The notes: a model not told the origin generated them from the sequence alone. A stretch of 61,698 bases of DNA, filler included, from 11 parts of 11 records of this genome joined end to end with filler, not necessarily neighbours in it, one strand, 5' to 3'; positions 2,095 through 51,016 are shown, counted from the whole stretch's first letter. Numbers and translations are program-made.

Positions 2095-2096
<2 letters not shown>
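749..2096 (-). CDS. Spliced hypothetical protein: signal-like N-terminus, sulfotransferase-like segment, C-terminal EF-hand-like pair
   Basis: Manual splicing of ~8 short GT/GC-AG introns gives one frame: MLSLSAAWALAQTS...CEPILVSHRELMLHPERV...VYDRFFNYSDGDGWKL...VYQLDPCDREEGVMTLNELVAWWD...YWAVGQ*. Confidence 0.5.
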
Positions 2097-2985
<889 letters not shown>

Positions 2986-11804: not shown

Positions 11805-11904
11805 NNNNNNNNNNNNNNNNNNNNNNNNNNNNNNNNNNNNNNNNNNNNTTAATTAATTAANNNNNNNNNNNNNNNNNNNNNNNNNNNNNNNNNNNNNNNN
11901 NNNN
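11805..11904. other. Artificial contig linker
   Basis: N-TTAATTAATTAA-N. Confidence 0.99.
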
Positions 11905-13842: not shown

Positions 13843-14297
13843 AATCAATTGAGCAACACATGCTCAGATCTACTACAGATCTACTACAATGTCCACAGAT
13901 GATGCATCTCAGACGGCTCTTGATTAATTACTTGTATAATGTGTGAACCATGCGGGAACTATGCGGGAACGTCTAGGAACTTCGGCAGTTCCAACGTTAC
14001 TACAAAACAACTTTAAAAACACAATCATAATAGCGTGAACAATTAAAACGTACTAACACTAAGCTATTTGTTTTAAGCTGATTTAGGCTTGGCAAGACTG
14101 CTGGTTTGGCTAGGTATTGGCTAGGTTTGGCGTAGCTTCTTGTGTACTGTACACTTGCGACACTTAAGTCTACAGCATGATGAAGTGTCATGCACAATTA
14201 TGATTAAATTATGATCAGCTATGTGACCCAAATAAACTTAAGTTAGTTGAACTCATGGTCGAGCGTCGCACACTGCGCCTTTTTGACATGCGTCCGG

Positions 14298-15056: not shown

Positions 15057-15632
15057 CCTACCCCATGCACCGCCGGCTTCCCGGCTTGTTGTTGTTGCAG
15101 TTGTTGTACATGTTGTGGAACAGTACGTACCTGGTACTTGTAGTGCGTCCTAAAAGAAAAGGGGTGGAACAATGTCTCTCGTGGTTTTTGTTGGGTCACT
15201 CCGCGATTGGTGGCGTCGTAGATTCCCCAATCCCATAGCGAGTTGTTCGGCACGGTCAGTCCAGGGATGTTCAGTTGGCCGCGTGCGGGCACAAGACTCA
15301 TTTCCACTCGCGCTTCCTTTTGGATGAGCGCAGGTCCATCGCCACGTGCTCGTTGTCATTCAGTTCAACAAGCATCCGTGCGTCGAACCCCCTCGGCGCG
15401 ACCCAAAACGGCTCGCGCCACCGGAGACCCCACTCCTTGAAGTTCACCTTCGGACTCGTCGAGCGGCTCGCCCCTCCTCATCTTTGATCTTTCCTTGGAA
15501 ACTTGTTGCCTCGCTGTAACAGACATTAAAAAATAAAGCCAATCCGGTGGCTGGCACCGGATCTCACACGCCGTGGAAGGGTCACAGGCGCCGGAGTACG
15601 GCGCCGCGAGTGGACGCTCTGGGCCTCTCTGA

Positions 15633-16944: not shown

Positions 16945-19128
16945 CGGGGGGGGGGGGGGGGCCAGCCCAGATCAGGTGCCGCTGGCCGCTCTGGAGCAGT
17001 TTGAGATCCGGGGCGGGCTGTTCGGGCCGGGGCTCGTGTGGTGCGCTCCGGCCAGGCCGGGGCGAGCCTCGGCAGGTGGGACGCGGTCACAGCGACTGTG
17101 TCTGAAAGCCCAACCGGCGAGCAAAGGCTGATTGTCGACGTCTCGCACCGGCGCGGCATGCACGCCGTGGTGTACCTGGCTGCCCAGGCGAGTGCTCGGG
17201 CGCGCTCGGCTCACCCGGTGACAGCACGCCGCGGCGCTAAGCGACCTGCGCGAGCGGTTTGTCTTCCCTGCCAGGCGTGTGGGACTGTTCGCTTTCGCGC
17301 ATCGGTGCCGGCTGCGCCACAGCCCGGGCGAGCTGGGGGGCAGGCCGCATATGGTGACAGTGGCCGGGATGCTCGACCGTCAAGCCGACTGGCGCCGGCA
17401 GGTGGGTAGCGGCGCCCGGGTCGGTGCCAGTGACGGCAGGCGATCGGGCATCGTTGGCGGGTGAGCACAGTGAACAGTATTTACCAGCTGTGCGCCAGCT
17501 ACCCCACGGTGCCGGCCGATCCACTGCCAGCCCAGTCGGGGGCAGTTACTAGCGGTCCCTGCCGAGATCACAGACAGGGTGCTGCTCGCGGCGGCTGAAT
17601 TCAGGACGATGGGTCGCATCCCGACCTTGAGCTGGGCCGATAAGGCTACTGGGGCCGGGCTGTGCAGATCCTCCCAGCCTAAGGTGGCTGCCCAGCCTCG
17701 GCCGCGCTGAGCCGCTGCAGTCGGGGCTGCTGGGCCGGGCGTCGGATCACGACGAGCGAATGCTGGAGGAGATTGGAAAGACTGGAAGTGGCAGCCTGAT
17801 GATCGCAGACTGTCGCCCGCAGGTGAACGCGTACGCCAACGCGATGGCCGGCGGTGAGTCGAGCCTACGCGCGGAAGGGCCGTGAGCCGGCCGCAGGTGG
17901 GTACGAGACTGAGGCCAACTACCCTCACGCAGAGCTCGAATTCTTGGAAATTCCAAACATTCACGCGGTCAGAGCTGCGCACCATAAGCTGCGGCAAGCG
18001 GCTGGGGCCCCGGAGCCGCCGCTGACGCTCGAGGCGGGCGAGTGGACCGGTCTGGTGGGCACAATACTGCTTGCGGCGACACGGGTGGTGCACGCACTGC
18101 ATGTGGCGCAGCGAAGCGTGCTGGTGCACTGCAGCGACGGCTGGGACAGAACCCCTCAGGCAGCGTGCGGCTGGGCGGGCTGACGGGCCGGCAGATAGTT
18201 GGGCTGGCGATGATAATGCTCGACCCGTTCTACAGGACGACCCTCGGGTTCTGCTCACTTGTGCAGAACGAGTGGGTGGTGATGGGACACCAATTCTGGC
18301 GCCGGACTGGACCGGGCTGCCCAGATGTGACCTGGCCCGGCCGGCAAGCCAAAGCGTTTGGCAGGCGGACGACTCGCAGCGCTGCCCGATATTGCTCCAG
18401 TGGCTTGATTGCGTGTGGCAACTGGTACAGCAGAACGGGGCACAATTCGAGTACGGCGAGAGGTTGCTGCTGCTGCTGTATCAAGGGTTTGAGGCTGGCC
18501 AATTCGGTACGTTCCTGTACGACAGCCAGCGGGAGGCCACAGCTATGCAGCAGCCAGGTCAGCTTGCCGGCCAGCAGCAGCTGAGTCGGAGGCAGCCCCA
18601 CCCATCTGGGACTGGCTGCTGTCAGAGCACCCACCCTCACACGAGCCACAGGATTTGGGCACAGGCAAGCCAAAGCGTTCGGCAAGCCGCTAACTAGGCT
18701 CTCAGTAATCTCGGTCGACCCATCGGCAGTGCGGGTCTGGGCAGCGATGCATCTAGAGCGGTGCGGCCGCAAGCCAGGCCAGGGCAAATGGTGGCAGGTG
18801 GGGGGTGGCGCTGGCTGCGGTGCCACCCGAGGTCGCAACAAATAGCCAGGGGCTGCTCCAATCGATGGCTGACAACGGCACCGCGGTGCTTGGCAACGGT
18901 GTCAATCAGCTGTCAGCGATCGGGCAACATCTGGGTTCATTCCTCCAAAAGGTTCACACAATCTACCAAGCAGGAGAGCCGCAACCGTCGTTGCATTTGC
19001 CGTTTGAGGAGGGTCCTTTGAATAGTGTCAAGAACCAAGGTGAAAACCCTACATGTACAGACGGATATACAGATGGACCTGAAGCGGGGAACACTAGTAT
19101 GCATGCACAGCCAGTTACCTTACAATGA
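16945..19128 (+). CDS. Myotubularin-related phosphoinositide 3-phosphatase, spliced, 5'-partial
   Basis: Catalytic VLVHCSDGWDRT; IADCRPQVNAYAN, GGYETEANY, IPNIHAVR, LDPFYRT, EWVVMGHQF, QWLDCVWQL, FGTFLYD. Confidence 0.93.
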
Positions 19129-30255: not shown

Positions 30256-32338
30256 ATGATCGGGCTGGCGCGGCTTGTGGGGCTGCTTGCGGGGCTGGCT
30301 GGCTGCCTTGGAGGGCTGCCGGTCCCGTCGGCGGCGCAGCTGAGCTACCAGGAGCTCGAGCTCGGGATGATCTTCCAGTTCAACATCGGCGAGTTCGGCC
30401 AGTCCGCCAACAACTACGTGCTAGCCCCCGGCCGCCCGGCCCAGCCCCCGGCCAGGCCTGTGTGCACGGACCGGTCCCCGCCAGCCAGTTCGCGCCGGGG
30501 CTGATCGACACCGACAGCTGGATGGCCGCGGCCGCCGGGCTGGGCGCCCGGTACGCCATGCTCACAGTGCAGGCCGGCTGCGGGTGCGGCCAGCAGCTGC
30601 GCCGTCGGGCCAGCCGGGGGCAGTTTCCTGCTCTGGCCGTCGGCGGAGCGGCTGCCGGGCGGGGGGGTGTACAACTACACTGTCCGTGAGAGCGGCTACC
30701 CGGGCACCGACCTCGTCGGCCAGTTCGTTGCCTCGTGCCGCAAGGCTGGGCTGAAGCCGGGTGCGCCCCCGGGCGGCAGGCCGGCTGAGCTGGCTCCAGC
30801 GCTCTACTACATAGTCAACAGCAACGTGTTCTGCGGCGTGTCCGGCGGCAAGGTGGGCTGGGCGCGCTGGCCACCTCAGCCGGCCGCAGGTGCAGCCCGG
30901 GAGCCTGTGCGGCAACCAGTCCGAGTACGAACTGCTGGTGCTCCGTCAGCTGGCAGAGATCTGGACCAAGTGGCTGCCCGGCCGATCGGCGCTCACCCGG
31001 CCGCAGCTACGGCAACCTGACCGAGCTTTGGTTTGATGGCGGCGTGCTCGGCAGTCGTCGGTGCCACGGCCACTGGCCGGGCTCAGAGCACTCAGGTTTG
31101 CTGACGGGCTGACCGAGCAGATCGGCCGGCTGCAGCCCGATGCCGTCTCGTTCCAGGTGGATGCCGGCCGTCGGGGGTTGACCGGTACCAGGGCCCTTCG
31201 CTCACCGGGACGAACAACCTCCGGTGGGCCGGATCCGAGTCGGGCCAGGCCGCGCCGGACACCTGGTGCACGGCCAACTCATCCACCGCCTACGGGCCCG
31301 GCTCGCCGGACGGGCCGGTCTGGGCGCCGGCTGAGTGCGACTTGACACTCCAGGCGAGCGGGCAGTGGTACTATGTGCCGGGGAGCCCTGTCCGATCGGC
31401 TGGTGAGCTCGAGCGAGTGTACGAGCAGAGCGTCGGGCGCAACTGCAACATGCTGCTCGGCGGGTGCCCCCCCGCTCGGTCCGGCTGAGCCTGGGCAGCC
31501 ACCCGGACTTTGGAGGCCACATCCCGCTGGAGCACCAGGCGGCGTACAAGCAGCTCGGCCAGTGGATCAGACAGGTGCGGCCCTCCGGCGGCGACCCGGA
31601 CCTGCGGGGCAGTGCTACGGGCAGCCGGCGCTCAACAGCACCGGCGGGGTGGTCGGGGTGCCGGGCTCGCTGCTGCTCGAGCTCCCAGACGGCTCCGCGA
31701 CCCGAGTGGTGCTCCAGGAGGGGCTCGCAGCCGGCCAGAAGGCACCCAATGGCACCGGCCGAGCCGAGCGCGAGCCAGGTGCGCCAGTGGAGCCTCGAGT
31801 ACCTGTCGGCGGGCCAGCAGTGGCTGCCGGTGCAGGCCGGGCAGGCGGCTGGTCGGGGCGGCCAAAGCTGATGGCTGGGCTCAGTCGATCGGGCACAAGA
31901 GGATCGTGCAGCTGAGCGCAGCCACCCGGTGACACAAGGCGCGAGCTAGCCAGGCCTGACCGGATGGGCAGCCGGCTCCGGCTCAACATAACGGAAGCAG
32001 TCGGTCAGACGGCTCAGGTTAGGACGCTGGCTGCATTCAGCTGCAGTGGGAGTGGGCCGCCGCCGCCACCTTCAGAGCATTGCCTGACCAAACCGGATCA
32101 AATCTACCTGGGTAACTTGGCTGCGAGCACCCGCAATAGTTCGGAGAAGCTCTGCTGCCAGGCAAATCTGACCACCACAATCATCGGGCTAACAGTGGTT
32201 TCTTAGGCGTGTTACACGCGGACTGACTGTGTCGCTTTCAATTATCTATCCAACCAGACGTGCCAATTGCTGAGTACGGAAGGTGGCGCAGTCAAGCAAA
32301 CAGGAGCCATCTGCGGCTCGCCCAAGCACTACATTTAG
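30256..32338 (+). CDS. Secreted GH29 alpha-L-fucosidase-like enzyme with C-terminal PAN/apple-like module, 13 introns
   Basis: PSAAQLSYQ, IDTDSW, GFLLWPS, FVASCRKAG, YGNLTELWFDGG, RWAGSESG, WAPAECD, SVGRNCNMLL, SIGHKRI; CCQACY..DCVAFNY...TCQL. Confidence 0.92.
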
Positions 32339-36728: not shown

Positions 36729-36838
36729 GCGCACTGGAGCCAGTCGAACGCCAGTTCCATCAGCATTTCGCCCGTCTGCCCGTTGCGCTGCACCAGGCTG
36801 GACTGCGCACTGTGGCGGTGGGCGGTGTGTGAGCGGCG

Positions 36839-39436
36839 ATGGGGGATGCACCGCGGCGTACGCGGGTCAAGATCCCGGTGGGCAAGGGGAAGGGCAAGGG
36901 CCGCAAGGGCGCGCCCAAGTCGCCCAAGTCGCCCCCGGCGGGCGAGGGGGACGAAGACATCCGGAAGAAGCTGGTTCGGATGACTCTAAAGCAGGAGGAG
37001 CTCAAAGATAACCTAGAGCAGGTGAGCCAGGAGCTCGGAGCCACCCAGCGCGACAAGATCGAGCTCAAGAAGCAGCTCAAGGAGCTGGAGGCCGGCAAAA
37101 TGGGCCACGACCAGCGGGTGGATCAGCTCAACGCTCAGCTGGCGGAGATGGAGGCCAGCATGGTCGGGAGGGGCTCGTCCGAGGAGCTGGACCAGGCCCG
37201 GCTCCAGATCGAGAGCCTGGAGCGCCAGCTGGCCGGGGCGAATCAGGCCCGCCTGAGGGTGGAGCAGAGCCTGGAGCAGCTGCAGGGAACCGACGACCTG
37301 CTCGAACGGACCAAGACCGAGGTGGGCAGCCTGCAGGAGGAGGTCAACCGGGCCAACGAGCAGCGGCTGGAGGCGGAGCAGCGGTCCAAGGAGTTCGGCG
37401 TGACCCTGCAGGAGAAGAAAGCGCTCCAGCTGGAGGTAGACAGGTTGGCTGCAGTCGAGCAGGACAGGGATAAGATGCTGCAGATGGCCCAGACCAGGGA
37501 GAAGGCGCTCGAGGCGGCCGAGCACCAGAAGGAGGAGAACCTGCGCCGGGCCAAGGAGTCCGAGGCTGAGGCTAAACAGCTGAAGGAGCAGCTTAAGCAG
37601 CTCGAGTTGGCCAAGGAGGAGCAGCGTAAGCAGGCAGAGATAGCGCTGCGCGAGGCGGTGGCCGCGGCAGACCAAGCGCACGCGCGGGAGCTGGCCACAG
37701 TGCTGCAGGAGGCACACCTGAAGTATAGGCAGGACCGGGCGAAGGAGTCATCGCATGTGCGCGAGTTAGAGAAGGCGCAACAGCAGCGGGAGCAGGATGT
37801 CGCCAGCAGCCTAGACGGGCTGCTGCAGCAGCTGCCGGGCGGAGCGCTCAATACGGTGCTCGACGTGTTTGAGGCCAATTTGCCCGAGCCTCAACTGGAC
37901 AGGCTAGTAGAGCGGCCATACATCCAGCAGCTGCTCTCTAATATTCAAACAGACGGGATAACTCCGGGCGCCCCCGGCCCCGCACAGACCGCGGCTCGGC
38001 TGCTCGAGATGGCTAACGGCGTGGAGTTTGATTTGATGCAGGCGGTGCTCAAGAAGCCGGCGGTCAATTCTCTCCGGAACTTGTCGCCCTCTAAGGACAG
38101 AAAGCAGGGGATTGAACTGAGCTTGAGCGGGATTCAGACCGCGCTCGAACACATGCAGCGGTATGTGGAGCAGATCGCGGGGCTGACCGAGGCGCGCGAG
38201 CGGGACCAGGCGGCGGCTGAGGCGAGGATTGAGGCGGCAGAGGCCGGCCTCAAGAAGAGCCTAGTGGAGGTGGCTGAGCTCACTCGCGGGTTGGAGGATG
38301 CCAACAGGGTTTGCATCGAGCAGGCTGAACGGCTGGTCGAGGCGGCCGCCCAGCGGGATGCTGACCAGGCCCGGATGGAGCAGCTGCGGGCGGCGCAGCA
38401 GACTGAGCTGAGCGAGCGGCACCAGCGGCACCAGCAGGAGGTCGCGGAGCTGCATGGTCAGATGGACCAGCTGGCTGACCAGCTGGCGCACTCGGAGGCT
38501 GAGCATAAGCAAATGAACCAGGAGCTCGAGCAGCGAGCAAAGCGAGTGGACCAATCCTCGCTCCCACTGGTGCACTGTGTGCATGAAGCCCTGCTCGACA
38601 TGAGTGGCTCGCTCCGAGGGCTGCACGACAGGCTGGGCTGGTGCGAGCAGGCCGCCAGCACAACTCCATTTGGTGGTGCGCTGCCGGGCGGGTGGGGCTC
38701 ACTGGGCGGGGCAGCTGGGAATGTGGCCGCGCTGTTGCCGCGTAGTCGGCCGATCGTGTTCCGGGAGCTCTCCGAGCTGCAGCGGCAGGCTCGCGGGATG
38801 GCGCCTCTGGTCGAGGGGAGTGGGCTGCAGAAGCTAGAGAGCCAGAGCGGCCAGCTGCTCGACCGGGCCTGCCTGGTGGAGCCTGGCACCAACATAGCGC
38901 CGTTGAGTGGAGCTGTCACCCAGATTCGTTCTGCAATAGCTCGGCTGCATAAGGCGGTGATGAGTGCAGGCCAACGGCATGAATGGGCGCTCTGTTGGCT
39001 GATGGACGAGCTCAACGGACGGATGGCTGACCGGCCGTTTGAGCCACCGATGGAGATGGAGCCGATGCCGTTAGAAGCGAGCAGCACGGGCCAGGCAGGC
39101 TCCTCATTCAATCGAGTGGTGCAGGCGGCACATTCGCTGCTGAGCGCGCATGGGGCCGCGGCCGGTGCTGGTGGGAGCACCGAGCTGGGCGCGCCGCCTG
39201 TGGTTGCGGAGTCGGTGGACTCAATAGAGTCGATCCACCGGCAGCTGAACCGGCTTGAAGGCTCAAGATTCGAGCCGCAAATGCAGGGATTTGAGCCGAC
39301 GTTCTCGTCAGATTATAAGCCGGTGTTTGCTGGGAGCATCAGGCGGCAGGCGGCGCCAAGCAGCCTGAGTGAGGCGTCGATAGCTGCTGCGGCCGCCCTA
39401 TTGGACATGCCGCACATGATGCCCAACACGGGCTGA
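36839..39436 (+). CDS. Long coiled-coil protein, intronless
   Basis: 865-aa ORF, E/Q/L/K heptad-rich, strong GC3 bias. Confidence 0.85.
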   Translation: MGDAPRRTRVKIPVGKGKGKGRKGAPKSPKSPPAGEGDEDIRKKLVRMTLKQEELKDNLEQVSQELGATQRDKIELKKQLKELEAGKMGHDQRVDQLNAQLAEMEASMVGRGSSEELDQARLQIESLERQLAGANQARLRVEQSLEQLQGTDDLLERTKTEVGSLQEEVNRANEQRLEAEQRSKEFGVTLQEKKALQLEVDRLAAVEQDRDKMLQMAQTREKALEAAEHQKEENLRRAKESEAEAKQLKEQLKQLELAKEEQRKQAEIALREAVAAADQAHARELATVLQEAHLKYRQDRAKESSHVRELEKAQQQREQDVASSLDGLLQQLPGGALNTVLDVFEANLPEPQLDRLVERPYIQQLLSNIQTDGITPGAPGPAQTAARLLEMANGVEFDLMQAVLKKPAVNSLRNLSPSKDRKQGIELSLSGIQTALEHMQRYVEQIAGLTEARERDQAAAEARIEAAEAGLKKSLVEVAELTRGLEDANRVCIEQAERLVEAAAQRDADQARMEQLRAAQQTELSERHQRHQQEVAELHGQMDQLADQLAHSEAEHKQMNQELEQRAKRVDQSSLPLVHCVHEALLDMSGSLRGLHDRLGWCEQAASTTPFGGALPGGWGSLGGAAGNVAALLPRSRPIVFRELSELQRQARGMAPLVEGSGLQKLESQSGQLLDRACLVEPGTNIAPLSGAVTQIRSAIARLHKAVMSAGQRHEWALCWLMDELNGRMADRPFEPPMEMEPMPLEASSTGQAGSSFNRVVQAAHSLLSAHGAAAGAGGSTELGAPPVVAESVDSIESIHRQLNRLEGSRFEPQMQGFEPTFSSDYKPVFAGSIRRQAAPSSLSEASIAAAAALLDMPHMMPNTG

Positions 39437-39671
39437 TGCAATTTATGAAGGAATTCATGAATATGAGAATACAAGTGGTTTCCAGTGATATTAAAAGTAC
39501 ATTACAATCATGATTGTACATGACATCAATTGTAATATCTTTTAATATGTTTGAATTGTATGAATTGCTTCAGTTTCCCGCATTAAATGTACATGCGACT
39601 AACAGTCATGAATGCATCGGTTTAGGTCCGGTAATGTCTCTTGTTCGCTGCCGCCGCATGCACGTACATCA

Positions 39672-40843
39672 TCAGAACTCGAGCTCGCGCGACTTGACAA
39701 TCGCAGTCACTAGCTCATTGTATGGAGCCTCGGTGCCCACCTGCGCAGCCACCACTGGGACCATTCCGTTGATTGCATCGATCTCCGACTTGCGCCGAGC
39801 CATGTGATCTTGCAGCAACGATGGCTTGGCATCCGGCATCTTTAGCCCAAACTCAGTCACATATTTCTCCGGGTCATCAAACCCGAGATTCACCTCCTTG
39901 GCCACAGCCGCCTCGTACGCCTCAGCTGCGCAACGGATCACTATACTCCAGGCGTGTGGGTCGGCATGCATCTCCTTTACAGACCGATGGAATACAGTGC
40001 AAGGCCCGCTGTAAGCCACGTTAGCAATAAACTTCTCCCAGATTAGCTTGTTAATGTCCTCGAACGCGTTGGCCGTAAATCCGCTCCCCCGCCATACGCC
40101 TGCAACCCGCTCTACCCTCTCCGAAAGCCCTCCGTTCATCTCGCCCAGTCTGATCTCGCTCATTCCATTGTGGTACACGTGACCCGGCCCCTTCATTGAG
40201 GCACCTGCCCGCACCAGCTGACCGGGCCCCGCCAACAGGCCGCACCGAACCCGCCGGCCACTCCGAGCAGAATGTTCCCGGTGGGCATGTGCTGGGCAAT
40301 CCGCTCGCCGGCGCCCAGTCCATTCTGGATGGTCAGCACCAGCGTGTCGCTGCCCGTGTTCACCACCCGGCCCCAGGGGCTCGCACCGGTCTACAATCGG
40401 CTGGATGCTCTGGGCAGCCGGGCCTACCCCGCCCGCCTTGGTGGCGATGATCACTAGCTGGCACGGGCCTGCCTTCCGGTTGGCTCCAGCGGCGTAGCCG
40501 GCAGCGCTGGCCTGCTTCGGCTGGGTCGGAGGTGGTGTGGATGCCCTGGACCAGCCGGTCCCCACTGGCGCCCTCCACCCGCAGCCCCGCCCGCCGTATG
40601 GCTTCCAAATGTTCCTTCCAGACGTCTACAGCCCAGACCTCGTTCCCGCCCTCGGCCAGCAGCCCCTACCGCCACCAGTGAGCCGGAACTCAGGCCAGGG
40701 CGCACCGCATACACCGAGCCCATCGCCCCCGCGCCCACCACCGCGATCTTCATCGGCCCCGACGAGCTGGCGCCGGTGGCGTATCGCCTCACTGCTCTCA
40801 CTGCGCCGCCAGCTCCGCCAGCCCATACCTCCCGGGCCAGCAT
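39672..40843 (-). CDS. panE: 2-dehydropantoate 2-reductase (ketopantoate reductase), spliced, with presequence-like N-terminus
   Basis: MKIAVVGAGAMGSVYA, VIIATK, TIQNGLG, IWEKFIANVA, KPSLLQD...KSEIDAING. Confidence 0.92.
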
Positions 40844-40903
40844 TTCAGGAGTTCTCGCCAACGGATCGGCCGCGGTCTTCGAGACGAAACCCGACCAACT
40901 AGC

Positions 40904-41921
40904 ATGCTATCGGCGCTGCTCCGAGGCGGGGCACGGGCGGTGGCTCCGGTGGGACGGGTGCAAGCTCGGTGCTATGGCGGCCTGGCTCCAGCGGCGGTGG
41001 GTTGGCTAGCCCAGGGGGTGTTCATGCGGGGGCAGCCTATCGGGGCTGCCGGCTGGTGTGGCACCACTATTGTCTCGGTACGCAAGGGCAACCAAGTGGT
41101 GGGCAGCCCAGCCGACCGGCCGGCTTAGGCGGCGAGGCAGGTGATAGCCGGGGATGGCCAAGTTACGGTGGGTCAATCGGTGGTAATGAAACCGAACGCG
41201 ATCAAAGTCCGCCGGCTCGGGGAGAGTCAGAAAGTGATTGCCGGATTCGCAGGTCGGCCCAGGCTCGAGCCTGGCTGACTGAAGCGGCAGGCTCCACCGC
41301 TGACGCCATGACTCTGTTCGAGCGGCTGGAGGGCCGGATCGAGGAGTACCCGGGTCAACTGCTCCGGGCGTGTGTTGAGCTGGCCAAGGCATGGCGGACC
41401 GACAAGTATCTCCGCAGGCTGGATGCCATGATGATTGTGGCCGACGCGGAGGTGTGCGCCCTGTGCCTGCCGCCCGGCAATGCGAAGCAGGTCTCGCTGA
41501 TGCTCACAGGGAATGGCGACGTGCTCGAACCTGCGTACGGAGTCACAGGCACCCCCCCCCCCGCTGCGCTTGCAGCCTGGCTCAGGCCCCTGGCAGCGAT
41601 CGGCTCCGGGGGCTCGTACGCGCTGGCTGCCGCCCGTGCTCTCATGGACTCGGGTGCGGCTCTAGTGATGCATGCGGGAGAGTGGGGGTAGATCACGGGG
41701 CTGAAGAGATCGCCCGGAGGTCCATGGAGATCGCTGCCGAGATGTACGCTTCGGCGGCAGGGCGAGGGTCCCGAGCAGGCGGCAGGTGTGTGTTCACCAA
41801 CAACAAGCTCGTTGTCGAGCTGATCGAAATGGTGGCTGATCGCCCATCGGGGCTGGCCGAGGCGGCTGGGCAGGAGCCGGAGGAGGACGAAGCCACAGCC
41901 GAGTCCAAGTCGTCCGAGTAG
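40904..41921 (+). CDS. hslV: Mitochondrial HslV (ClpQ) threonine protease, ~8 introns
   Basis: Presequence then TTIVSVRKG...IAGDGQVT...[20 protein letters not shown]...[19 protein letters not shown]...GNGDVLEP...IGSGGSYA...CVFTN. Confidence 0.96.
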
Positions 41922-42236
41922 GCGCCGTGCAATCAGCTGGTGACTGCGGTTGTCAAGCCGGGCGAGCTCGAGTTCTGATGATGCTCACAATTGCAAATGC
42001 ATGCACGGTGCACGGGTGCATTGGAATGGGCGTGCTATGATTGTAGTGCTTCAATGGGAGGACTTCATAACTCGTAGGGGGATCGCTCCAAGAAATCAGA
42101 GGTTTCAATAGTCAACACTAGCACTCACTAGTATACGACAATAAACACTAATTGGAAGTAGTCCTGGCATGATATGAATTGCATCAACCGCTGCCTTCAA
42201 GAAAGCCCGTCAAATGCTGCATGAAAGCCCGTGCGG

Positions 42237-43125
42237 TCATGCCTCTACGGTGTCTTTGGGCTCGCCACCACGCGTCGCCCGCAGGCGGCCAGCCGGCTCA
42301 TCGAGCTGGCAAGTGCAGCATTGAGCTCGATCATTTTCATCATACGGTGCTTCTACCACAATCGGCGAGCAGGCCATCCAGGGTCACGCCGCGTCGCTGG
42401 TCTGATCCATTGGCATGGGTGACGTGCTGCGGCGTGTCCGCCCCGCTGATCAGGTGGTGAGTGGCCACTCTCGTCTGCTACCTAAAGGTCCGTCGCCACT
42501 GGTAGCATACACCACGAGCTCTCAGAGCCCAGAGTGGCGTCAAATAAGAAACTGCCACCAGCCGCAGCGCCTGAAGAGCCCGACAGCCCTGCCCACGGGC
42601 TCAGCCGGCAGAGCTCACACGGCCAGTTGCCTGCGATAGCTCGAATCGGCCCACCACTGCAAGAGCCCCCAAGTATTGCCTTTCTTCGGTTTGCCGCCAA
42701 CCGAGCCTCTCGTAAAAGCCGCGGAGCTCGGTCGCCCTGGACCCCGGGAACCAGAGCAGCAGGTGCGGCAGCTGGCAGCTCTCGGCAATCCGGAGCACCC
42801 GATTGACCAGCAGCCGCCCGGTCCCCTTGCCCCGAGCCTCTTCGGCAACGAACAGCGCCGCCAGCCACGGTCCTTGGGCAGGCCTGTCGGCCATGTCTGC
42901 CGTGTCCAGGCTGGCCATCCCGCGCGGCTCGCCCGACGCGTCGAGCGCAACCACGGTGGTCGGCACAGGCGTGCTCGGGTCGGCGTAGTCGGCCGCGAAG
43001 TCGGCTTGGATCTCCGCCACACTCTCCAGGCCGAAGGCCGCGTTCTCGGCCGGCCAGGCAGCCAGGCTCCACTCGGCCAGTCGAGCCGCCAGGCCCGGCG
43101 CAGCGCTCAGCTCGATCAGCTTCAT
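42237..43125 (-). CDS. GNAT N-acetyltransferase, probably extended by splicing into an F-box-like segment
   Basis: PWLAALFVAEEARGKGTGRLL...GFYERLGW; GC-AG intron 42589-42630 leads into LRLVAVSYLTPLWALRARGVCYQWRR; 3' end uncertain. Confidence 0.75.
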
Positions 43126-43229
43126 CGCCTGGCGTCCGTTACCGGCATTAAACGTCCGTTACCGGTGTTTACCTGCAGGGTGAGCATGTGTACACTCCGA
43201 CGAGCGGCCGGCCAGCCTCATCTACCAAC

Positions 43230-43438
43230 ATGGGTTCGACGAGGCTGCGCGCGGTGGTCCAGCAAGCTCTGGGCGCCTGGCTGTTTGGGGCGATCCTGTC
43301 TGCGATCACCCGCCGATGGGACTTTGAGCAAGAGCTGGTGTTCTACGGCTCGTACCACCAGGAGCCGCTCAACCAGGCGATCCACTTCGTGTTCGTCCCG
43401 CTGATCTGGTGGTGCCTGATCACCCTCTTCTGCTACCT
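43230..43438 (+). CDS. Mpo1-like/DUF962 membrane protein, 3'-partial
   Basis: FEQELVFYGSYHQEPLNQAIHFVFVPLIWW. Confidence 0.85.
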
Positions 43439-43538
43439 NNNNNNNNNNNNNNNNNNNNNNNNNNNNNNNNNNNNNNNNNNNNTTAATTAATTAANNNNNN
43501 NNNNNNNNNNNNNNNNNNNNNNNNNNNNNNNNNNNNNN
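43439..43538. other. Artificial contig linker
   Basis: N-TTAATTAATTAA-N. Confidence 0.99.
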
Positions 43539-44441
43539 GCCGCCGAGATTTATCCCAGCTTTGCCATGACTGAGCCGGATACTGTGTCCTCAGACCCTAC
43601 GGGGATCCAAACCAGCGCCGAGCTGGTGGACGGGCACTGGGTGATCAACGGCCGCAAGTGGTGGACCTCCAACGCAGGAATGGCAGCGTTCACCAGCGTG
43701 ATGGTCAAGACTGAGCATGGAGACGAGGTCAACCCGTACTTGAGGTTCTCAATTCTACTGGTCCCGACCGACAGCCCTGGCTATGAAATCCAGCGGGCGA
43801 CCCATGTGCTCGGCGCCGAAGGATTCGACCACTCGGAGGTTGTGTACGACAACGTGCGTGTGCCGGAGTCAAACCTCATAGGCCAGCGCGGCATGGGCTT
43901 CGTCATAGCACAGGAACGGTTAGGCCCTGGTAGAATCTTCCACTGCATGCGCTGGCTCGGGCAGGCTCAGAGGGCGTTCGATCTTATGTGCGCCCGGCTG
44001 GTGTCTCGGCGGCTGGCGGGTGGCCGTCCGTTGGCTAAACTGCAGCTGATGCAGAAGCACGTGTTTGATTCATATGTTGATATCAACTCACACAGGCTGC
44101 TCACACTCGCAGCTGCGGAGAAGATGGACTCGGGTGACTATGCGAGGGTGGAGCTTGCAGCGGCCAAGGCCTTCGGAGCCCAGATGCTGGGCAGAGTGAT
44201 GGACCGAGCCGTGCAGTGCTGGGGCGCCAAGGGGCTAACAGAGGACACGCCGCTGTCATTCATGTTTCGGCATGCTAGGGCAGCCCGATTCTACGATGGC
44301 CCAGACGAAGTGCACATGAGCACTGTCGGACGGCTGATTCTGAAGGAATACGCCAATAAGAAACGCTGGGACTTTTCGTCCGGGGGTACCTCTGATCTCT
44401 CGGACTCTGTGGCGGAAGAGATGTTCCCATCAAAAATGTAA
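43539..44441 (+). CDS. Acyl-CoA dehydrogenase (ACAD10/11/FadE-like), 5'-partial
   Basis: FAMTEPD..SSDPT, WVINGRKWWTS, AQERLGPGRIFHCMR, DRAVQCWGAKG, RFYDGPDEVH. Confidence 0.95.
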   Translation, partial: AAEIYPSFAMTEPDTVSSDPTGIQTSAELVDGHWVINGRKWWTSNAGMAAFTSVMVKTEHGDEVNPYLRFSILLVPTDSPGYEIQRATHVLGAEGFDHSEVVYDNVRVPESNLIGQRGMGFVIAQERLGPGRIFHCMRWLGQAQRAFDLMCARLVSRRLAGGRPLAKLQLMQKHVFDSYVDINSHRLLTLAAAEKMDSGDYARVELAAAKAFGAQMLGRVMDRAVQCWGAKGLTEDTPLSFMFRHARAARFYDGPDEVHMSTVGRLILKEYANKKRWDFSSGGTSDLSDSVAEEMFPSKM

Positions 44442-44788
44442 TCATATAAACTAGGAGATGCTACCTGACCTGCAATCTTATTGTACTGGTTGCATGATTG
44501 TGTTTGGCTATCAGTTGTTCACTCGACTACACTCAAACAAATTAAATTCAAGCCAAGCTACTTCATGCTTGGAAGGGCGAACTCAAGAGTGCTTAGGCTA
44601 CCGTGATCGAGGTTAGTTTAGTTTGCATTATTTTATGAGGATCACTAAAATCAATTCTACTACTCTGAGTAAATCTACACTTTCTCGTCGGCATATCTCT
44701 ACATGACTACTTTACAAGCATTCAACAGGAGCACGGCTAAACCAACGCGCAATGACTTCGTGGTCGCCACGCTCCGTCTTGTGCACAC

Positions 44789-45987
44789 TCACGTATAGCG
44801 AATCCTCTTTGCCCGGAAGTCCTTGCGTGTGAGCTTCTTGTCACCATCGTCCTCCAACACCTTGGTCCACCTGTGACGCCGGGCTCAATCACGCAGCCAG
44901 CAGCAGCCGAACTCACATGGCATGCATCCGGCAGGCGCCATCTTGATGCTTGCCGCCACAGCCGCAACGGATTCGGATCCTCCCGTCGTGTCCGGCTGAT
45001 GAAGAGACGCGGATCTCACCACAGTAGCCGCACCGGTACTTCTTGAGCGTGATGAGGAGCATGTCTTCGGCAGCCGGATCGTGGGTCACAATAAAGAGCG
45101 ACTTGGGCGTATTGGGGACTCCCAACCTGGTCTTTCTTTTCTTCTGGGCCGGTCCATCCTCGTTGAAGTCTTCCTCAGCACGCTCGGCATGCAGGTGGGT
45201 CTCCATGCCTACATTCATGGGGGCTGTATTGTTGCTGAGCCGGGCCAACATGTTGAAGACGTTTGACTCGGAGGGGGAACTATAATTCGGCTTCCGCGGA
45301 TCTGCGCCGGCTTGAACATCCCCGGAGAGTCTTCGCATTCCTTGTTGATTTGCCAGATACGAAGGTATTCCTTGTTGATTTGCCAGATACGCACCGGCGG
45401 GCAACCCTTGTGACGAGGCCCGGCTCAGAGCTTGTTGTTGGCTGAAGAGCCACTGGGCGGTCATGTACGGGTTGTTGTAGCTCCCAAACGAGGCCCCGGG
45501 CGCGGCGAGTCCCCAAGAGCCCGAGAAGTTGTTCGCCTGCAAGACTTGAGTTAGACCGGCCGGTCAAAGCAAGCGGGCGCACCGAGAGCGGCTGAGCTTG
45601 CCGGTAGTTGATCTCGGAGCTTGGTCGGCGGCCATCGGATGGCGGGCCCGTGGGCAAGATCTGGTACTGGGACTGGTATAGGTTGAGCATGTCTTGAAAG
45701 TTGCGCGGGTTGCCCGGGGGCAATACACCGGCTCGGGGCTCAGGGGGTCTCAATCTTACACCGCGCTCGCCGGTTGCGAGTCCGGCCAGGATGTTGAGGT
45801 CTGGGGGAACAGGGGGCTTGTTGGTAGTTGGCTGGTAAGCGGCATGAGGGTTCTTGGGCTCAAAGCCTTCGCCGATGGGGTCGCTGGTGAGGTCTTCGCT
45901 CACGTCGCTTACGGACGATGAGAGTCGCCTCGAGTTGGGCCGGCCGTAGCCCAGACTGCAATGTGCGCTCGCAGGAATCTGTGCCAT
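44789..45987 (-). CDS. Low-complexity protein with C-terminal Cys/His-rich basic domain, 2 introns
   Basis: MAQIPASAH...; KKRKTR NLS-like; KKYRCGYCGEIRVSSSAGHDGRIRIRCGCGGKHQDGACRMHAM|WTKV. Confidence 0.75.
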
Positions 45988-46174
45988 TTGGTGTGTGGGA
46001 GTTGGGGGCGAGCAAGTCAGATCCTGGGGACTCAACCTGAAGTCTTGCTCTAAACCTTCCTTTTTGGGGAAATGTGTCTTGCGATCGCTATTTTTCTCAC
46101 CACAGAATCGCAAAATCCGTTGGTGAAGAAGACTGCGAGACTTCCTTGTTGTGATTTGAGGCAGCGCCGCCAGC

Positions 46175-46209
46175 ACGCGGAATCCGCGCCAGATGCGCGG
46201 ATTCCGCGT
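46175..46209. repeat. Perfect 15-bp inverted repeat with 5-nt spacer
   Basis: ACGCGGAATCCGCGC-cagat-GCGCGGATTCCGCGT. Confidence 0.9.
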
Positions 46210-46222
46210 AGCGGAAATTGAA

Positions 46223-46270
46223 TGGTCGGCGTGGTCGGAGCGTGGTCGGAGCGTGGTGACTGGTCGGAGC
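46223..46270. repeat. Short tandem repeat (TGGTCGGAGCG)n
   Basis: About four imperfect copies. Confidence 0.8.
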
Positions 46271-46549
46271 TAGAGTGTATTAGAGTGCATTATTGTTCAA
46301 ACCACTGTCGATTTGGAAACAACTGTCCGGCCTGTAGCTAGCCTGTAGCCCCCGGCGTACCGGGTACCGGTACCGCCGCATGTATACACACGGTCGCAAT
46401 CCGTCGCATAAAACGCACACTCATACATTTATTCGAAATTCGGGAAGGACCACATAACCAGTTACCTAGGTTGATGATTGTTCAATACTTAAATAATAGT
46501 TGTCAATGAGTGTCCGTCAAGTACAGTATCAGTCTTGTGGCATGATAGC

Positions 46550-49500
46550 TTAATAGTCATCAGAGTCTTCCGCCGCCATCATAGCATAGGCAAGTGCCTG
46601 TTGATCCGGAGGAAGCGATTGAAGCAATGCTTCCCTCGAATCCTTTGGTGGGGGCGGCTTGTTGGTAGCAGTATCAACTGTGACTGGGCTTGACAGTTCA
46701 CTGTTGTCGCTGGCAGGCTTACCATCTGCTACACCAATCAAGCCAAACACCGAGCTTCCCATATCGAGTAGTCCGCCCATGAGCCCGCTTGAGTCCTCTG
46801 CCGCCGCTGCTTTAGGTTCAGGTGCCTGCACCTGACCGGATGAGGCATCTGTAGAGCAGGGCTGTGGCTCTCGTTCTGCTGCGGGTACCTCCGGCACTTT
46901 CTGTGGCGGTTGAGTTGCACTGTCATCACTTTCTGTTGCACTAATCAGTCCAAACATTGAGCTGCCCATATCGAACAGGGCCCCCGCGAGTGTGGGTGCC
47001 TCCGGTAAGCTACACGGCTCGATTTCGACTGCCAAGGGCTTGCCCGGTTCGATCAGTTGCATGAGTTGCTCACCATCAGACTCGGCTATCATTAAGCAGC
47101 AGCCCTCATAGGCCTTTGGAGTGCCTGGCATGTGGAAAGGCCACTCGTCGCCCTTCTGAAGCACAACCACACCAAGCGCACCAGCAGCGGCCGCAGCTTC
47201 TGCCTTTGCCTGGAAAGTAATACGGCCTCGCTCACACAAAGCGATTGCTCCCTTGAGCTTGTCAGCGTTTGAGAGCTGGAAGCCATCAAGCGGTTCCATT
47301 GGTACCAGTGGCGCCTCCAACTTGCTCCTCTTGCTGAATTCAGACCAAGTCCCAATGAATTCAGCTCCCTTGACCACCACGCGAGCCCATTCCTTTTCTG
47401 GGGCAGAATCATCAGCACCACTCCTGCCACTGACGAGCTGCCTCGCCCACTCCAGTCGCAACCGCTGCTTGGCATGTCCACGGCTCAACTGACACCATGG
47501 CCGCTTTGTCGCCGCAGTTCTCACTACACTCGTCCAGTTGCCTTGCGCTAGTCGATCTGTCATCCTCCTCAATGATCTCGCAGCTAATGCTCGCATTCTT
47601 GTACCGCTCAAAGGTGGTGATATGTTGCTCAGTACAATAAGCGTACGAGCCAGGTTAGGGATCGCAACCGCTTGATTGTCGAGTTCGTTAATCGCTTCGA
47701 GGTTTTGTTCTGCGGACTTGAGCTGAGCCTGCACGCCGAGCATTGGCCGCGAGGCTTGTGCGTAAACTGCATTCACCAGTTCAGCCATCTCACTGTACAT
47801 TGTCTTGAGCTGGGAAGCATGTCCTGGCTCCAAGGTGGCATCCAAGATCCACACCGCTTGGCTAGCTGGACCAGTAGCGGGCTGGAGGAGACTTGCCTCT
47901 GGGACTACTGCAGTAGGAGGCAAGACCACAAAGTCTTGCGACTGTACTGCCATCTGGAAGCAGTGTCGCTCGCCTAGCTTTTCCATACCGAGCTGGATCA
48001 ACCTGTTTGCTGAGAGTGTGTGGAAAGACTGAAACTTGACCCCACTTTTGTGGAACGTGTGAATGTGATGCCTGAGTCCTATCCTCTCAAGGAAAGCTGC
48101 TGCCTCGTCATCTTTGGGAGAAGCAACATTGTCATTATGCAACTTGCCCACAAGAACCAGCGCTACAATTGCTTGCTGGTCCAAGTCGAGGATGTACTCT
48201 CTTGCAAATGCACGCGCAGCAGAGGCTGGCACTGTCTGACCTCCCACAGTGGGCAGACGGAGTACGAGGACAACTGTGCCGACACTAGGCAGCTGAAGCT
48301 GTGTCTTGTCTTCAGGTGCAAGCACAAGCCGCCCAACCACACCAGAACCTGGCCAATACGGCGCTCCAGGCAGCACGTATCCGAGCACTGTTTGCTGCAT
48401 TCCTTGAGTCGACTGCCAGTCTGGATAGAGCATGCAGATTGGTACCACATCGCTGGAGTCAGCCAAGTCCTCCGTACCCACCAGGCTGACTTCTTCTTGC
48501 TCAGCTGGTACAATCGGCGAGTCAGGCTGCACATCAATCGGTCCTACTGTAACTGATGGCACTGGGTTGCTCACTTCCGTCAGGCAACGCAACGTGGCCG
48601 CAATACAACGCAGTCGATATGCCTTTTGCTTGTGTACAGCAATGTTCCTTTCAAGGAAGACTAGCTTAGCTATTGCTTCGAGCCTCACCTCTTTGCTGGC
48701 TGCACTGCCGATTTTTGCTCGGAGTTTTCTCGCCTGTGCAATCTTATGCATGCCTAATAGCATAAACCGAGCCTTGAGTGCCCCTAGCCGATCTCGCCGA
48801 GGGTTACCAACTGGGATGTCGTCCTCAGGGGCTCGTGCTAACACATCTGCACCTGTCTCGATACAGCAATCCAATGTCCCCAGCACATCTAACTGTTGCT
48901 GCAGTGCCAGCCCTGATTGATAATCCACCATGATGCATGGAATGTCCACCTTATTGCCAGTGTCTGCACCAGGCATCACAAAAGGCCAGTCGCCCTCTTC
49001 ACTCTGCACCACTACCATTGCCCTGCAGCCACACTCTGCCAGTTGCATGGCTTTCTGAGTAAATGTTACCCCTCCGCCTCGCCTACAAAGACCTATGCAC
49101 CCGATAAGCTCTTTCCCATTGGAGATCGATGGGCTGCACGTATCAGGATCGGCCATTTTGAGCATGCCACGCAATGGTTGCACATCAGGCCCAAACGATG
49201 CAGTCATTCCAAGAATATACTTGTCGTCATAGCGCAGCCAGCAACCTTGTGCTTTTGCAACCACCGATAGCTCAGACCAGCTCTGTTGGGCCACAGAAAG
49301 TGCAGACTGAGGAGACGATTGGATCATGGACAGTGCAATGCTCCCCAGGTCAGCCATTCCATCTGTCACGGCCCCAGTCAGGGAAGGCCCGCTCATTGCA
49401 AGATCGAGATCCGACTCCTCAAATCTGGCAGCCACTTTGTTCAGCGTTGCCAACCCCCGCACCACTGCACGAGGGAGCAACTGGCTCCATGGCCGCCTAC

Positions 49501-51016
49501 TGAGTACTTCCACCAGCTGGGCCAGGTTCACCTCTTGGCCCCGGGCATAAGGGTGGTTGCCGGCCATCCGAGCAATAACAGCAGCAAACCTCGCCTTCTC
49601 TTGGTGCCGCCAATTTCCAAGCCCACTGTGACTGCAGCATATTTGAGCGATTCTGGCAGCTGCAGAGCTGACATGAACTCCTGGGGGCTCTCTGCCCAGC
49701 TTACTTGGTGGGTTGATTGAGCTACACAAATCCACCACAGAACGGACAGTGGAGTTGTAATGCTGCTTCCTAATACAGGAAAGCTCTCCCTCCAAGGATG
49801 TGAGAGTAGAGGTCAGATTAATAGAACCAGGATCTGGATGATCAACTAAAAGGCAAGGGATTGTGATTTGCTCTGGAGACAATGCTGTGAATGTTGCTGC
49901 TCTTTCTCTAAATGCTACCAGATTTGATTCCTCATTGTCCAAAGCTGGATTGTCTATTATCCCCAACGAGGCCAGCTCCTGAGGTGTAAGCGTTTGGAAC
50001 ATGCCCAGCTTAATCTTGTGGTGCAGCACTAGTCCCACGCAGCGCTCACGGTCATTTTCTCTGAGAAACATCTCCTCAGGGCTATAGGACCGCGCCTCTA
50101 GCCGCCTCGGCCAATCTGCTGCTCTCTGAGAGCTCAGCACTACAACTCCAACAGCCCCAGCACACTGCAGTCTATAGCACTGAGTGGTGGCAGGGATGCA
50201 GCATTCTTGGCACACTACAATCTTGCCTTCAAACACAGCATCCTGGATGGGCTCAGACACTGTAAGTGGACTAGCTAGTGCAAAAGTCGCTCGCAGAGGT
50301 TTGCTGAGTGGCTCTCCGAATCCAGCAAGAGTTGCATCCAGCAACATTGGTCCAAGCCAGACCTGGGCATCGAACGTCTGGCCACCAATCTCATCGGACT
50401 GGCTACTGAAGAGTGTTGGCATCTCAAGCTTTGGGAGCCAATCCGAGTCGATCGGGCCAGCCCCACTCCCATGGGCGTTCCCGCTTTGTCGGATTGCGTT
50501 AGCAAGCCTGAGACTGTCAGCTTCCAGCAGATCAGCTGCAGCCAACACATCGTGCTGTTGTTGTGCTAGGATTTCTTCCAGCACTGCCTCCATCTCTGAC
50601 TCGGACCAAGGCTTCATCTCGGCTATGTATTGATCAGTGAAGTCTGCGCATGGACATTCCAGGCCGAGTTCTCGTAATGCCGCATGAAACTCACGGGTTG
50701 AACTAGATCTGGCCTTGATTCGACCAATATACCTGCGAAAATCACTGCAGCACAGCAGGCCATTGTCGTCGATCCCAACAAAATCCATTAGCTCCACCCG
50801 ACGAGATGAGGTTGCAAAGCATGTTTCTGAGAATCTTGCTGTCTCTTCGCCGCCTGAAGCCTTGCTAAACATCTCTTCAGCACAACGCTGCTCGCAAACA
50901 GAAAGCACCTTGCAGATGCTAGGGTGAAATGCTCGCCTCAGCAATTCTTCCATCCGACTGCTCAGCCCTTGCTGCCCAGTCTCAGGGCTGTGCCCCTGAG
51001 ACTGTTCAAGCGCGTT
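46550..51016 (-). CDS. Large multi-PA-domain protein with EF-hand-like and SAM domains, 5'-partial, intronless
   Basis: PA motifs GCIGLCRRGGGVTFTQKA...GCRAMVVV...IPCIMV and GAIALCERGRITFQAKA...GALGVVV; SAM FLERIGL..HIHTF...LIQLGMEKLGER; frame open to the contig edge. Confidence 0.85.
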   Translation of the reverse strand, partial: NALEQSQGHSPETGQQGLSSRMEELLRRAFHPSICKVLSVCEQRCAEEMFSKASGGEETARFSETCFATSSRRVELMDFVGIDDNGLLCCSDFRRYIGRIKARSSSTREFHAALRELGLECPCADFTDQYIAEMKPWSESEMEAVLEEILAQQQHDVLAAADLLEADSLRLANAIRQSGNAHGSGAGPIDSDWLPKLEMPTLFSSQSDEIGGQTFDAQVWLGPMLLDATLAGFGEPLSKPLRATFALASPLTVSEPIQDAVFEGKIVVCQECCIPATTQCYRLQCAGAVGVVVLSSQRAADWPRRLEARSYSPEEMFLRENDRERCVGLVLHHKIKLGMFQTLTPQELASLGIIDNPALDNEESNLVAFRERAATFTALSPEQITIPCLLVDHPDPGSINLTSTLTSLEGELSCIRKQHYNSTVRSVVDLCSSINPPSKLGREPPGVHVSSAAARIAQICCSHSGLGNWRHQEKARFAAVIARMAGNHPYARGQEVNLAQLVEVLSRRPWSQLLPRAVVRGLATLNKVAARFEESDLDLAMSGPSLTGAVTDGMADLGSIALSMIQSSPQSALSVAQQSWSELSVVAKAQGCWLRYDDKYILGMTASFGPDVQPLRGMLKMADPDTCSPSISNGKELIGCIGLCRRGGGVTFTQKAMQLAECGCRAMVVVQSEEGDWPFVMPGADTGNKVDIPCIMVDYQSGLALQQQLDVLGTLDCCIETGADVLARAPEDDIPVGNPRRDRLGALKARFMLLGMHKIAQARKLRAKIGSAASKEVRLEAIAKLVFLERNIAVHKQKAYRLRCIAATLRCLTEVSNPVPSVTVGPIDVQPDSPIVPAEQEEVSLVGTEDLADSSDVVPICMLYPDWQSTQGMQQTVLGYVLPGAPYWPGSGVVGRLVLAPEDKTQLQLPSVGTVVLVLRLPTVGGQTVPASAARAFAREYILDLDQQAIVALVLVGKLHNDNVASPKDDEAAAFLERIGLRHHIHTFHKSGVKFQSFHTLSANRLIQLGMEKLGERHCFQMAVQSQDFVVLPPTAVVPEASLLQPATGPASQAVWILDATLEPGHASQLKTMYSEMAELVNAVYAQASRPMLGVQAQLKSAEQNLEAINELDNQAVAIPNLARTLIVLSNISPPLSGTRMRALAARSLRRMTDRLAQGNWTSVVRTAATKRPWCQLSRGHAKQRLRLEWARQLVSGRSGADDSAPEKEWARVVVKGAEFIGTWSEFSKRSKLEAPLVPMEPLDGFQLSNADKLKGAIALCERGRITFQAKAEAAAAAGALGVVVLQKGDEWPFHMPGTPKAYEGCCLMIAESDGEQLMQLIEPGKPLAVEIEPCSLPEAPTLAGALFDMGSSMFGLISATESDDSATQPPQKVPEVPAAEREPQPCSTDASSGQVQAPEPKAAAAEDSSGLMGGLLDMGSSVFGLIGVADGKPASDNSELSSPVTVDTATNKPPPPKDSREALLQSLPPDQQALAYAMMAAEDSDDY

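Follow-up and report, generated by a model that had tools for sequence, protein, structure and literature searches.

Mini-introns of about 39 nt, probably of the ordinary spliceosomal type, in a GC-rich marine protist genome

The gene for the mitochondrial-type HslV (ClpQ) peptidase described here (40904-41921, + strand) lies in a 61,698-base stretch of DNA, hereafter the window, which joins 11 contigs of 3.4-8.3 kb and is presumably a draft bin. Eight segments of 38-48 nt interrupt the gene and are removed from its RNA, and introns of similar size are supported by homology in two further genes and predicted on 10 of the 11 contigs. We consider it very likely that these mini-introns are ordinary U2-type spliceosomal introns near minimal length, from a compact, GC-rich genome of a marine protist, and that they are a property of this genome rather than of HslV alone. 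They amount to ordinary splicing in a compact form and give no evidence of a new mechanism. The source organism is taken to be a protist because HslUV is reported to be absent from animals, fungi and plants (PMC7050145).

HslV introns are removed from RNA

Before splicing, HslV-like peptide pieces hop among the three reading frames of 40880-41930. Assembled contigs (Logan) of three RNA runs, X2, X3 and X4, drawn from three marine metatranscriptome studies, skip eight segments of the gene, which measure 39, 42, 38, 39, 48, 38, 42 and 42 nt. Six of the eight joints are present in two or three runs from different studies. Allowing for shifts of the cut at the joints, the segments comprise seven GT-AG introns and one GC-AG intron. 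As far as the RNA contig pieces extend, the transcript covers 40897..42083 (+), and the spliced coding sequence (CDS) consists of nine exons with a complete translation of 229 aa, from the ATG at 40904 to the stop codon at 41919-41921. Among the matches listed, no intron was retained in any HslV RNA contig, although Logan contigs drop rare forms. Eight introns in 1018 nt, one of them GC-AG and every joint at GT/GC..AG in RNA contigs of three studies, bear out the initial annotation, which had read about eight introns of 35-48 nt from the DNA, about 8 per kb, with one GC donor.

Seven of the introns begin with GT. Intron 1 (40997..41035, 39 nt, phase 0, GC 0.69), joined in X2 and X4, carries an in-frame stop if retained. 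Intron 2 (41099..41140, 42 nt, GC 0.79) is joined in X2 and X3, and the loose end of an X4 contig at 41101 runs on into the next exon. The joint of intron 3 (41253..41290, 38 nt) is present in all three runs, and the A of a CTGAC within the intron lies 13 nt before the 3′ end. Intron 4 (41452..41490, 39 nt; X3 and X4), intron 7 (41744..41785, 42 nt; X2 and X3) and intron 8 (41832..41873, 42 nt; X2 and X3) are, like intron 2, stop-free multiples of three. Intron 6 (41654..41691, 38 nt) ends in the acceptor TAG and is joined in X2 only.

The longest of the eight, intron 5 (41549..41596, 48 nt), opens with GCA and a run of 11 C; it has a CTCAG whose A is 13 nt away from the 3′ end. Its joint, found in X2 only and with a shorter side of 30 letters, allows four possible cuts (CA..GG, AG..GC, GG..CA and GC..AG), and GC-AG is therefore the sole splice-like reading. 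In X3, one contig breaks off at the final exon base ahead of this intron (41548). Six of the eight introns are multiples of three, five of them without an in-frame stop; retention of these five would insert 13-16 residues with the frame intact, and would thereby escape nonsense-based surveillance.

The HslV introns are GC-richer than the exons, with values of 0.63-0.79 for single introns and 0.73 when pooled, against 0.64 in exons. Their T share is 0.07-0.21, and pyrimidines make up 0.25-0.55 of positions -23..-4. The 3′ ends read GGGGGCAG, GAGGCAG, GCGGCAG, GAAGCAG, CTGGCAG, GGGGTAG, GGCGGCAG and TGGGCAG. An A stands 11-14 nt from the 3′ end in all eight introns, in the contexts CTGAC, CTCAG, CTTAG, CCGAG or similar, so that the purine-rich 3′ ends and branch-like motif first noticed in the DNA recur at boundaries set by RNA.

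Over 193 alignment columns, of which 2 are gapped, the spliced protein shares 81% identity with P0008, a protein from a catalogue of marine eukaryote transcripts. Identity to six other eukaryote-type proteins is 68-75%, and to the bacterial HslV P0009 70%; the closest proteins, which are EukProt Trinity and MERC transcriptome entries, align over their full length at 74-81%. A metagenome scan with HslV exon 4 kept 80 loci, of which 77 have an uninterrupted HslV frame, as in bacteria, while two are cut by a contig end and one lacks the search motif.

Mini-introns occur across the window

The spread of such introns was assessed with a gene and intron finder written for this analysis, which uses dynamic programming to combine codon log-odds with weight matrices for donors and acceptors and with a model of intron length. 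Training started from the eight HslV introns and went on for three rounds on the finder's own calls, and reversed, non-complemented contigs served as decoys; this finder replaced an earlier finder without splice-site models, which had placed 1 of the 8 HslV introns exactly. A first pass gave 126 introns against 35 in decoys. After retraining, genes scoring at least 30 contained 140 introns in 34 genes, compared with 9 introns in 8 decoy 'genes', and 7 of the 8 HslV introns were placed exactly. Unless stated otherwise, frequencies below refer to these 140 predicted introns.

Their lengths are narrowly distributed (median 39.5 nt, standard deviation 3.7, 5-95% at 35-45 nt), and 136 of the 140 measure 35-49 nt. 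Phases 0, 1 and 2 are represented by 79, 35 and 26 introns. Contig 43539-51016 is the one on which none is predicted. Overall density is 3.9 per kb of CDS and is very uneven among genes (chi-square 145, 33 degrees of freedom, p 5.5e-16). The myotubularin, SET/LSMT-like, GH29-like and MYND genes have 12-13 predicted introns each; the 867-aa open reading frame (ORF), the ABC transporter and the GH113 gene have 0-1. Counts of 12-13 occur in some genes with about 1.1-1.5 kb of CDS, and counts of 0-1 in CDSs of 2.5 kb on the same contigs.

Eighteen introns are supported independently of the finder, eight by RNA and ten by homology. They measure 35-48 nt, all are GT/GC-AG, and three (at 41549, 40469 and 18160) are GC-AG. 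Four of the homology-supported introns lie in a ketopantoate reductase gene (ApbA/PanE-like, 39675..40753, - strand), identified by Pfam ApbA and ApbA_C matches: 40205-40245 (41 nt), 40350-40386 (37 nt), 40469-40511 (43 nt, GC-AG) and 40666-40705 (40 nt). With these removed, the protein aligns end to end and with zero gaps to the 306-aa bacterial-type proteins P0123 and P0126 (54-55% identity), which suggests that the introns were gained after transfer of the gene from bacteria. A fifth predicted intron, upstream of the likely start codon, was left out of the count.

The other six lie in a myotubularin-like phosphatase gene (16946..18924, +) with 12 predicted mini-introns, recognized from Pfam Myotub-related matches on successive frames, from prediction and from alignment to P0361, the best homologue in an exhaustive protein search. 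Conserved, gap-free junctions against P0361 back the introns at 17509-17545, 17684-17720, 17854-17896, 18160-18194 (GC-AG), 18327-18364 and 18761-18797. Around the junctions at aa 31.7, 69.0, 95.7 and 115.0 conservation is poor and the alignment has a gap close by, and these four were excluded from the supported set; those at aa 424.3 and 432.7 are plausibly real.

Splice signals, composition and folding

The predicted donors follow the consensus (A)G/GTGCG (the slash marks the splice site). On the exon side, position -1 is G in 89% and -2 is A in 49%; within the intron, +3 is G in 71%, +4 is C in 51% and +5 is G in 59%. The earlier reading that donors share little beyond GT/GC thus stands only in part, given the preference for G at -1 and +3. 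The acceptor is G-rich and reads GCAG/G: position -3 is C in 95% and -4 is G in 81%, each of -5..-8 is G in 51-63%, and the first exon base (+1) is G in 67%. The donor holds about 6 bits of information and the acceptor about 8.5 bits; the corresponding values in 12 supported introns are 5.7 and 8.5 bits.

Adenosines are concentrated 11, 12 and 13 nt from the 3′ end, with counts of 40, 47 and 39 where the rest of the interior has about 4-24 per position, and the A at 11-14 nt holds independently of the finder in the eight RNA-supported HslV introns. A YTNA whose A lies 7-25 nt before the 3′ end is present in 69 of the 140 introns, where 21 are expected from shuffled interiors. In the branch region CTGA and TGAC are enriched 4-5 fold, which corresponds to a CTGA(C/G)-type motif. 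There is no pyrimidine tract: the longest pyrimidine run at -25..-4 has a mean of 2.9, shorter than in CDS windows (3.3), and about half of the letters at -12..-4 are G. A polypyrimidine tract is likewise missing from many U2-type introns of protists and fungi.

The introns fold no more strongly than their dinucleotide shuffles (mean z -0.19, with 5% of introns below -2). Nor do they form a repeat family in an all-against-all comparison, where the best global pair scores 15 and shuffles reach 13. The 5′ sites of U12-type introns have the consensus ATATCC or GTATCC, and none of the 18 supported introns starts in this way. In Paramecium, a deficit of stop-free introns with lengths divisible by three was reportedly described by Jaillon et al. 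in 2008. Here such introns number 36 of the 140 predicted and 5 of the 18 supported; since our estimate from composition alone is about 26%, there is no sign of a Paramecium-type deficit.

GC donors

GT donors number 116 and GC donors 24 among the predicted introns. Of the 104 introns that are needed for an open frame, 16 have GC, and for nine of these no other, GT-AG cut that keeps the frame is available within 30 nt. When the finder was given no preference at intron position +2, so that GT, GC, GA and GG were all allowed, it called 108 GT, 33 GC, 13 GG and 3 GA introns (8, 7, 0 and 4 in decoys for GT, GC, GA and GG). The GG calls indicate that some non-GT calls are noise, and we therefore set the GC-AG share at roughly 10-20%. 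AG precedes 21 of the 24 GC donors, and several of them read GCGAG or GCAAG; a strong exon context of this kind is typical of genuine GC-AG introns elsewhere.

Comparable levels are known from GC-rich algae. In Emiliania huxleyi, GC-AG introns account for 56% of 241 hand-mapped junctions (PMC4028052), and in Aureococcus and Pelagomonas, whose introns average 103-177 bp, for 14-17% (bioRxiv 10.1101/2024.10.30.620910); both sources put this down to high genomic GC. With similar levels in these algae, the share found here needs no divergent U1.

Recognition of the introns and competing explanations

These signals probably act together in recognition across the intron (intron definition). The modest donor, (A)G followed by GT or GC and then G-C-G, would pair with U1 and U6, and a CTGA(C/G)/CTCAG-type branch site would offer its adenosine 11-14 nt from the 3′ end. 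A branch adenosine so near the AG would leave no room for a pyrimidine tract; the 3′ site would be marked instead by the G-rich stretch and the strongly conserved GCAG/G. The arrangement suggests that recognition of the 3′ site depends mainly on the AG-reading part of the machinery, either the small subunit of U2AF or its equivalent, and on the constant distance from branch to AG. A length confined to about 39 ± 4 nt probably adds information. High genomic GC would account for the tolerance of GC donors at about 10-20%, as it does in other marine algae with GC-rich genomes. Removal from RNA, boundaries, lengths, composition, motifs and occurrence across the contigs are observed directly; from these patterns we infer both the identity of the factors that read the signals and a measurement of length itself. 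The initial proposal that introns are defined largely by length and geometry is partly sustained: short, narrowly sized introns without a pyrimidine tract fit recognition across the intron, but a donor of about 6 bits, an acceptor of about 8.5 bits and a branch motif mean that geometry does not act alone.

Several observations weigh against reading the mini-introns as ordinary introns spread through the genome. The joints at 41549-41596 and 41654-41691 come from one X2 contig each, and RNA support as a whole is limited to one gene and to assembled contigs, which are blind to retention levels. The 140 introns are predictions of a self-trained model, so that motif frequencies, including the A peak, which falls within the 14-nt acceptor window, are partly circular. 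Wrong predictions occur: HslV intron 1 was given a wrong donor, and antisense 'genes' overlap real ones. The 13 GG and 3 GA calls mean that part of the 33 GC calls may be noise, and a predicted GC intron of the ABC transporter (5127-5168) falls in an unconserved stretch, where the closest homologue gives it no support.

A remodelled spliceosome is compatible with ordinary U2-type introns and goes further. In such a genome the large U2AF subunit or SF1 would have been lost or retargeted, or U1 changed, with 3′ sites found through a G-rich tract and length measured. The lack of a pyrimidine tract, the G content of about half at -12..-4, introns that are GC-richer than exons (0.73 vs 0.64) and a weak donor of about 6 bits would all suit this view, and in humans SPF45 takes over from the U2AF heterodimer at short introns whose pyrimidine tracts are truncated (bioRxiv 10.1101/784868). 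On the other side, nothing in the window bears on the machinery, and no Rfam family matched at gathering score; the donor GTGCG resembles the canonical Micromonas donor AG/GTGCGT (PMC3879977); and the algae with similar GC-AG levels are explained by high genomic GC, with no altered spliceosome invoked in the consulted passages of PMC4028052 and bioRxiv 10.1101/2024.10.30.620910. We regard this remodelling as rather unlikely. Equally tentative is the corresponding model of the 3′ site, in which a G-rich stretch and GCAG at a fixed 11-14 nt from the branch, combined with a length ruler of about 39 nt, would be read without a pyrimidine tract; this could accompany loss or retargeting of large U2AF, for example in favour of an SPF45-like or G-tract-binding replacement. 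If true, it would make this genome a natural model for pyrimidine-independent intron definition.

The other explanations fare worse. Recent spread of a mobile family (introner-like elements) would account for the strong differences in intron density among genes (p 5.5e-16) and for a bacterial-type ApbA gene with four introns. However, no pair of introns is alike beyond shared end motifs (15 vs 13 in shuffles), and the 10-mers shared in excess (162 vs 74) are for the most part motifs of the acceptor (...GGCAG) or branch (...GCTGAG) type, which makes recent spread quite improbable. Still less probable is membership in the BOC1-type introns of the big outlier chromosome of Mamiellophyceae. These also occur many per gene at 40-65 nt (PMC3491373 and PMC3879977), and the sample here is likewise marine. 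They are defined there as AT-rich (<43% GC), lying in a low-GC region and having no discernible branch motif (PMC3879977), whereas the HslV introns are 63-79% GC in DNA of 60-66% GC and possess a branch-like motif, and the closest proteins are transcriptome entries and not from Mamiellales. Assembly or frameshift artefacts, or euglenid-type non-conventional introns excised by pairing of their ends, would explain the broken reading frames and nothing further. Both are refuted by RNA joints with GT/GC..AG ends in three studies, and end pairing also conflicts with the mean folding z of -0.19, so that we assign this explanation a negligible chance.

Comparison with known short introns

The mini-introns share features with several known classes and coincide with none of them. 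Those of the BOC1 type in Ostreococcus, Micromonas and Bathycoccus also belong to marine picoeukaryotes, are numerous in single genes and short (<75 nt; 40-65 nt there, 38-48 nt in HslV), and occur alongside intron-poor genes. They differ in being AT-rich, confined to a low-GC chromosome region and without a recognizable branch motif, while the introns described here are GC-richer than exons, lie on 10 of 11 contigs and carry a branch-like motif. Emiliania huxleyi, Aureococcus and Pelagomonas resemble this genome in high GC, in GC donors far above the usual level of about 1% and in the acceptor AG. The pelagophyte introns, averaging 103-177 bp and fewer than one per gene, differ from those described here, which measure about 39 nt and reach a predicted 13 in a single gene. 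Introns of Chloropicon average 122-154 bp (PMC12301720).

Human ultra-short introns that depend on SPF45/RBM17 are similar in size (43-65 nt), in the lack of a proper pyrimidine tract and in their GC- or G-rich context. They form a small subset beside long introns, whereas here the short class is seemingly the default, and the likeness does not imply the same factor dependence. Genomes with tiny introns, such as Paramecium (about 25 nt), Porospora (28 nt) and Babesia microti (about 20 nt), show the same narrow, near-minimal lengths and a branch A near the 3′ end; in Porospora a conserved A lies 6 nt from the acceptor (PMC9250747). The introns of the present genome are longer (35-48 nt) and GC-rich, and the depletion of stop-free multiples of three known from Paramecium is absent. 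A literature search found no earlier description of GC-rich, G-tailed introns of about 40 nt, which is weak evidence of novelty given that its coverage was incomplete and supplements were excluded.

Short introns are usually AT- or U-rich relative to exons. Here introns of about 39 nt exceed the exons in GC and G content, have no pyrimidine tract and are nevertheless precisely removed. The contrast in composition is the reverse of that seen in AT-rich short introns such as BOC1. If genome-wide, they would provide a natural test case for finding 3′ sites without pyrimidine reading of the U2AF65 type and for the contribution of intron length. Gene callers of the prokaryotic or default eukaryotic kind will break such genes into pieces, and an intron model with GT/GC donors, lengths of 35-48 nt and GCAG acceptors would improve the annotation of marine eukaryotic bins. 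Relatives in protein databases appear as exon-sized fragments.

The window and its sequencing runs

The HslV gene sits on contig 36729-43438. The contig joints consist of 44 N, TTAATTAATTAA and 44 N, at 8256-8355, at 11805-11904 and at eight more spacers. As the contigs are merely chained by these spacers, neighbourhood across a spacer carries no meaning. GC content of the window varies between about 0.50 and 0.71 in 2-kb steps and is 0.60-0.66 in the HslV region. Marine or aquatic sequencing runs contain 5-13% of the words sampled from 38000-46000, and nine of these runs are recorded as RNA; the run search supports statements on habitat or abundance no further than 'marine/aquatic'. In addition to the three RNA runs, contigs of a DNA run (X1) were used. 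They leave 40863-42903 uncovered, and a public-run DNA control on HslV itself is thus missing.

Pfam matches on the open frames of the window are eukaryotic in flavour and include eIF4E, myotubularin, ChAPs, MYND, WD40, GH38 and an ABCB half-transporter, among others. Neither rRNA nor tRNA was found within the window. Contigs 43539-51016 and 11905-16844 have a lower GC content (about 0.50-0.56), contain 0 and 2 predicted mini-introns, respectively, and hold few confident genes; the former had no Pfam match in four scans. They may belong to a different genome region or to a mis-binned organism.

Other genes with mini-introns

The initial annotation had also singled out the genes for mitochondrial uL15 (uL15m) and a GH29 enzyme, neither of which has RNA joints. 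uL15m (2095..2985, +), recognized by frame reading and prediction and by weak Pfam Ribosomal_L27A matches (E 0.00029 and 0.013), contains six predicted mini-introns in its CDS, as had been stated: 2224-2260, 2359-2398, 2484-2524 (GC), 2609-2651, 2703-2740 and 2819-2859. The GH29-like (alpha-L-fucosidase-like) gene (30256..31987, +) has 12 predicted mini-introns where 13 had been counted, two of them GC-AG (31742-31778 and 31845-31884). Its label is itself weak, coming from one Pfam Alpha_L_fucos match on one exon (E 0.039, below cut-off), and three Pfam scans of ORF fragments gave no GH29. In the present models of uL15m, HslV and the GH29-like gene, 4 of 26 introns are GC-AG, close to the 5 of 27 given earlier though not identical. 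The closest transcript-derived protein to the ABC transporter shares 64% identity with it.

The predicted myotubularin gene includes a micro-exon of 25 nt (18596-18620, PPIWDWLL) between two mini-introns; P0361 has WDWLL at this place. Fragmentary metagenome proteins related to ApbA (P0122, P0125 and P0121) start close to or exactly at two of the ApbA exon junctions, a hint that these two intron positions are shared with relatives. The start codons of ApbA and HslV face apart with about 150 nt between them (40753-40904), in divergent transcription, and the RNA contigs of two runs start 7 nt ahead of the HslV ATG. This is a very compact genome, and ApbA and HslV probably have a promoter region in common.

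On the same contig as HslV, an 867-aa open frame (36833-39433, +) matches no Pfam family and contains one predicted in-frame intron of 39 nt (38676-38714). A metagenome scan returned no relatives of it, and its atlas matches are weak (0.91) and of mixed taxa. An X4 RNA contig of 151 nt covers 38538-38675 of this frame and ends exactly at the predicted intron, with 13 letters unplaced.

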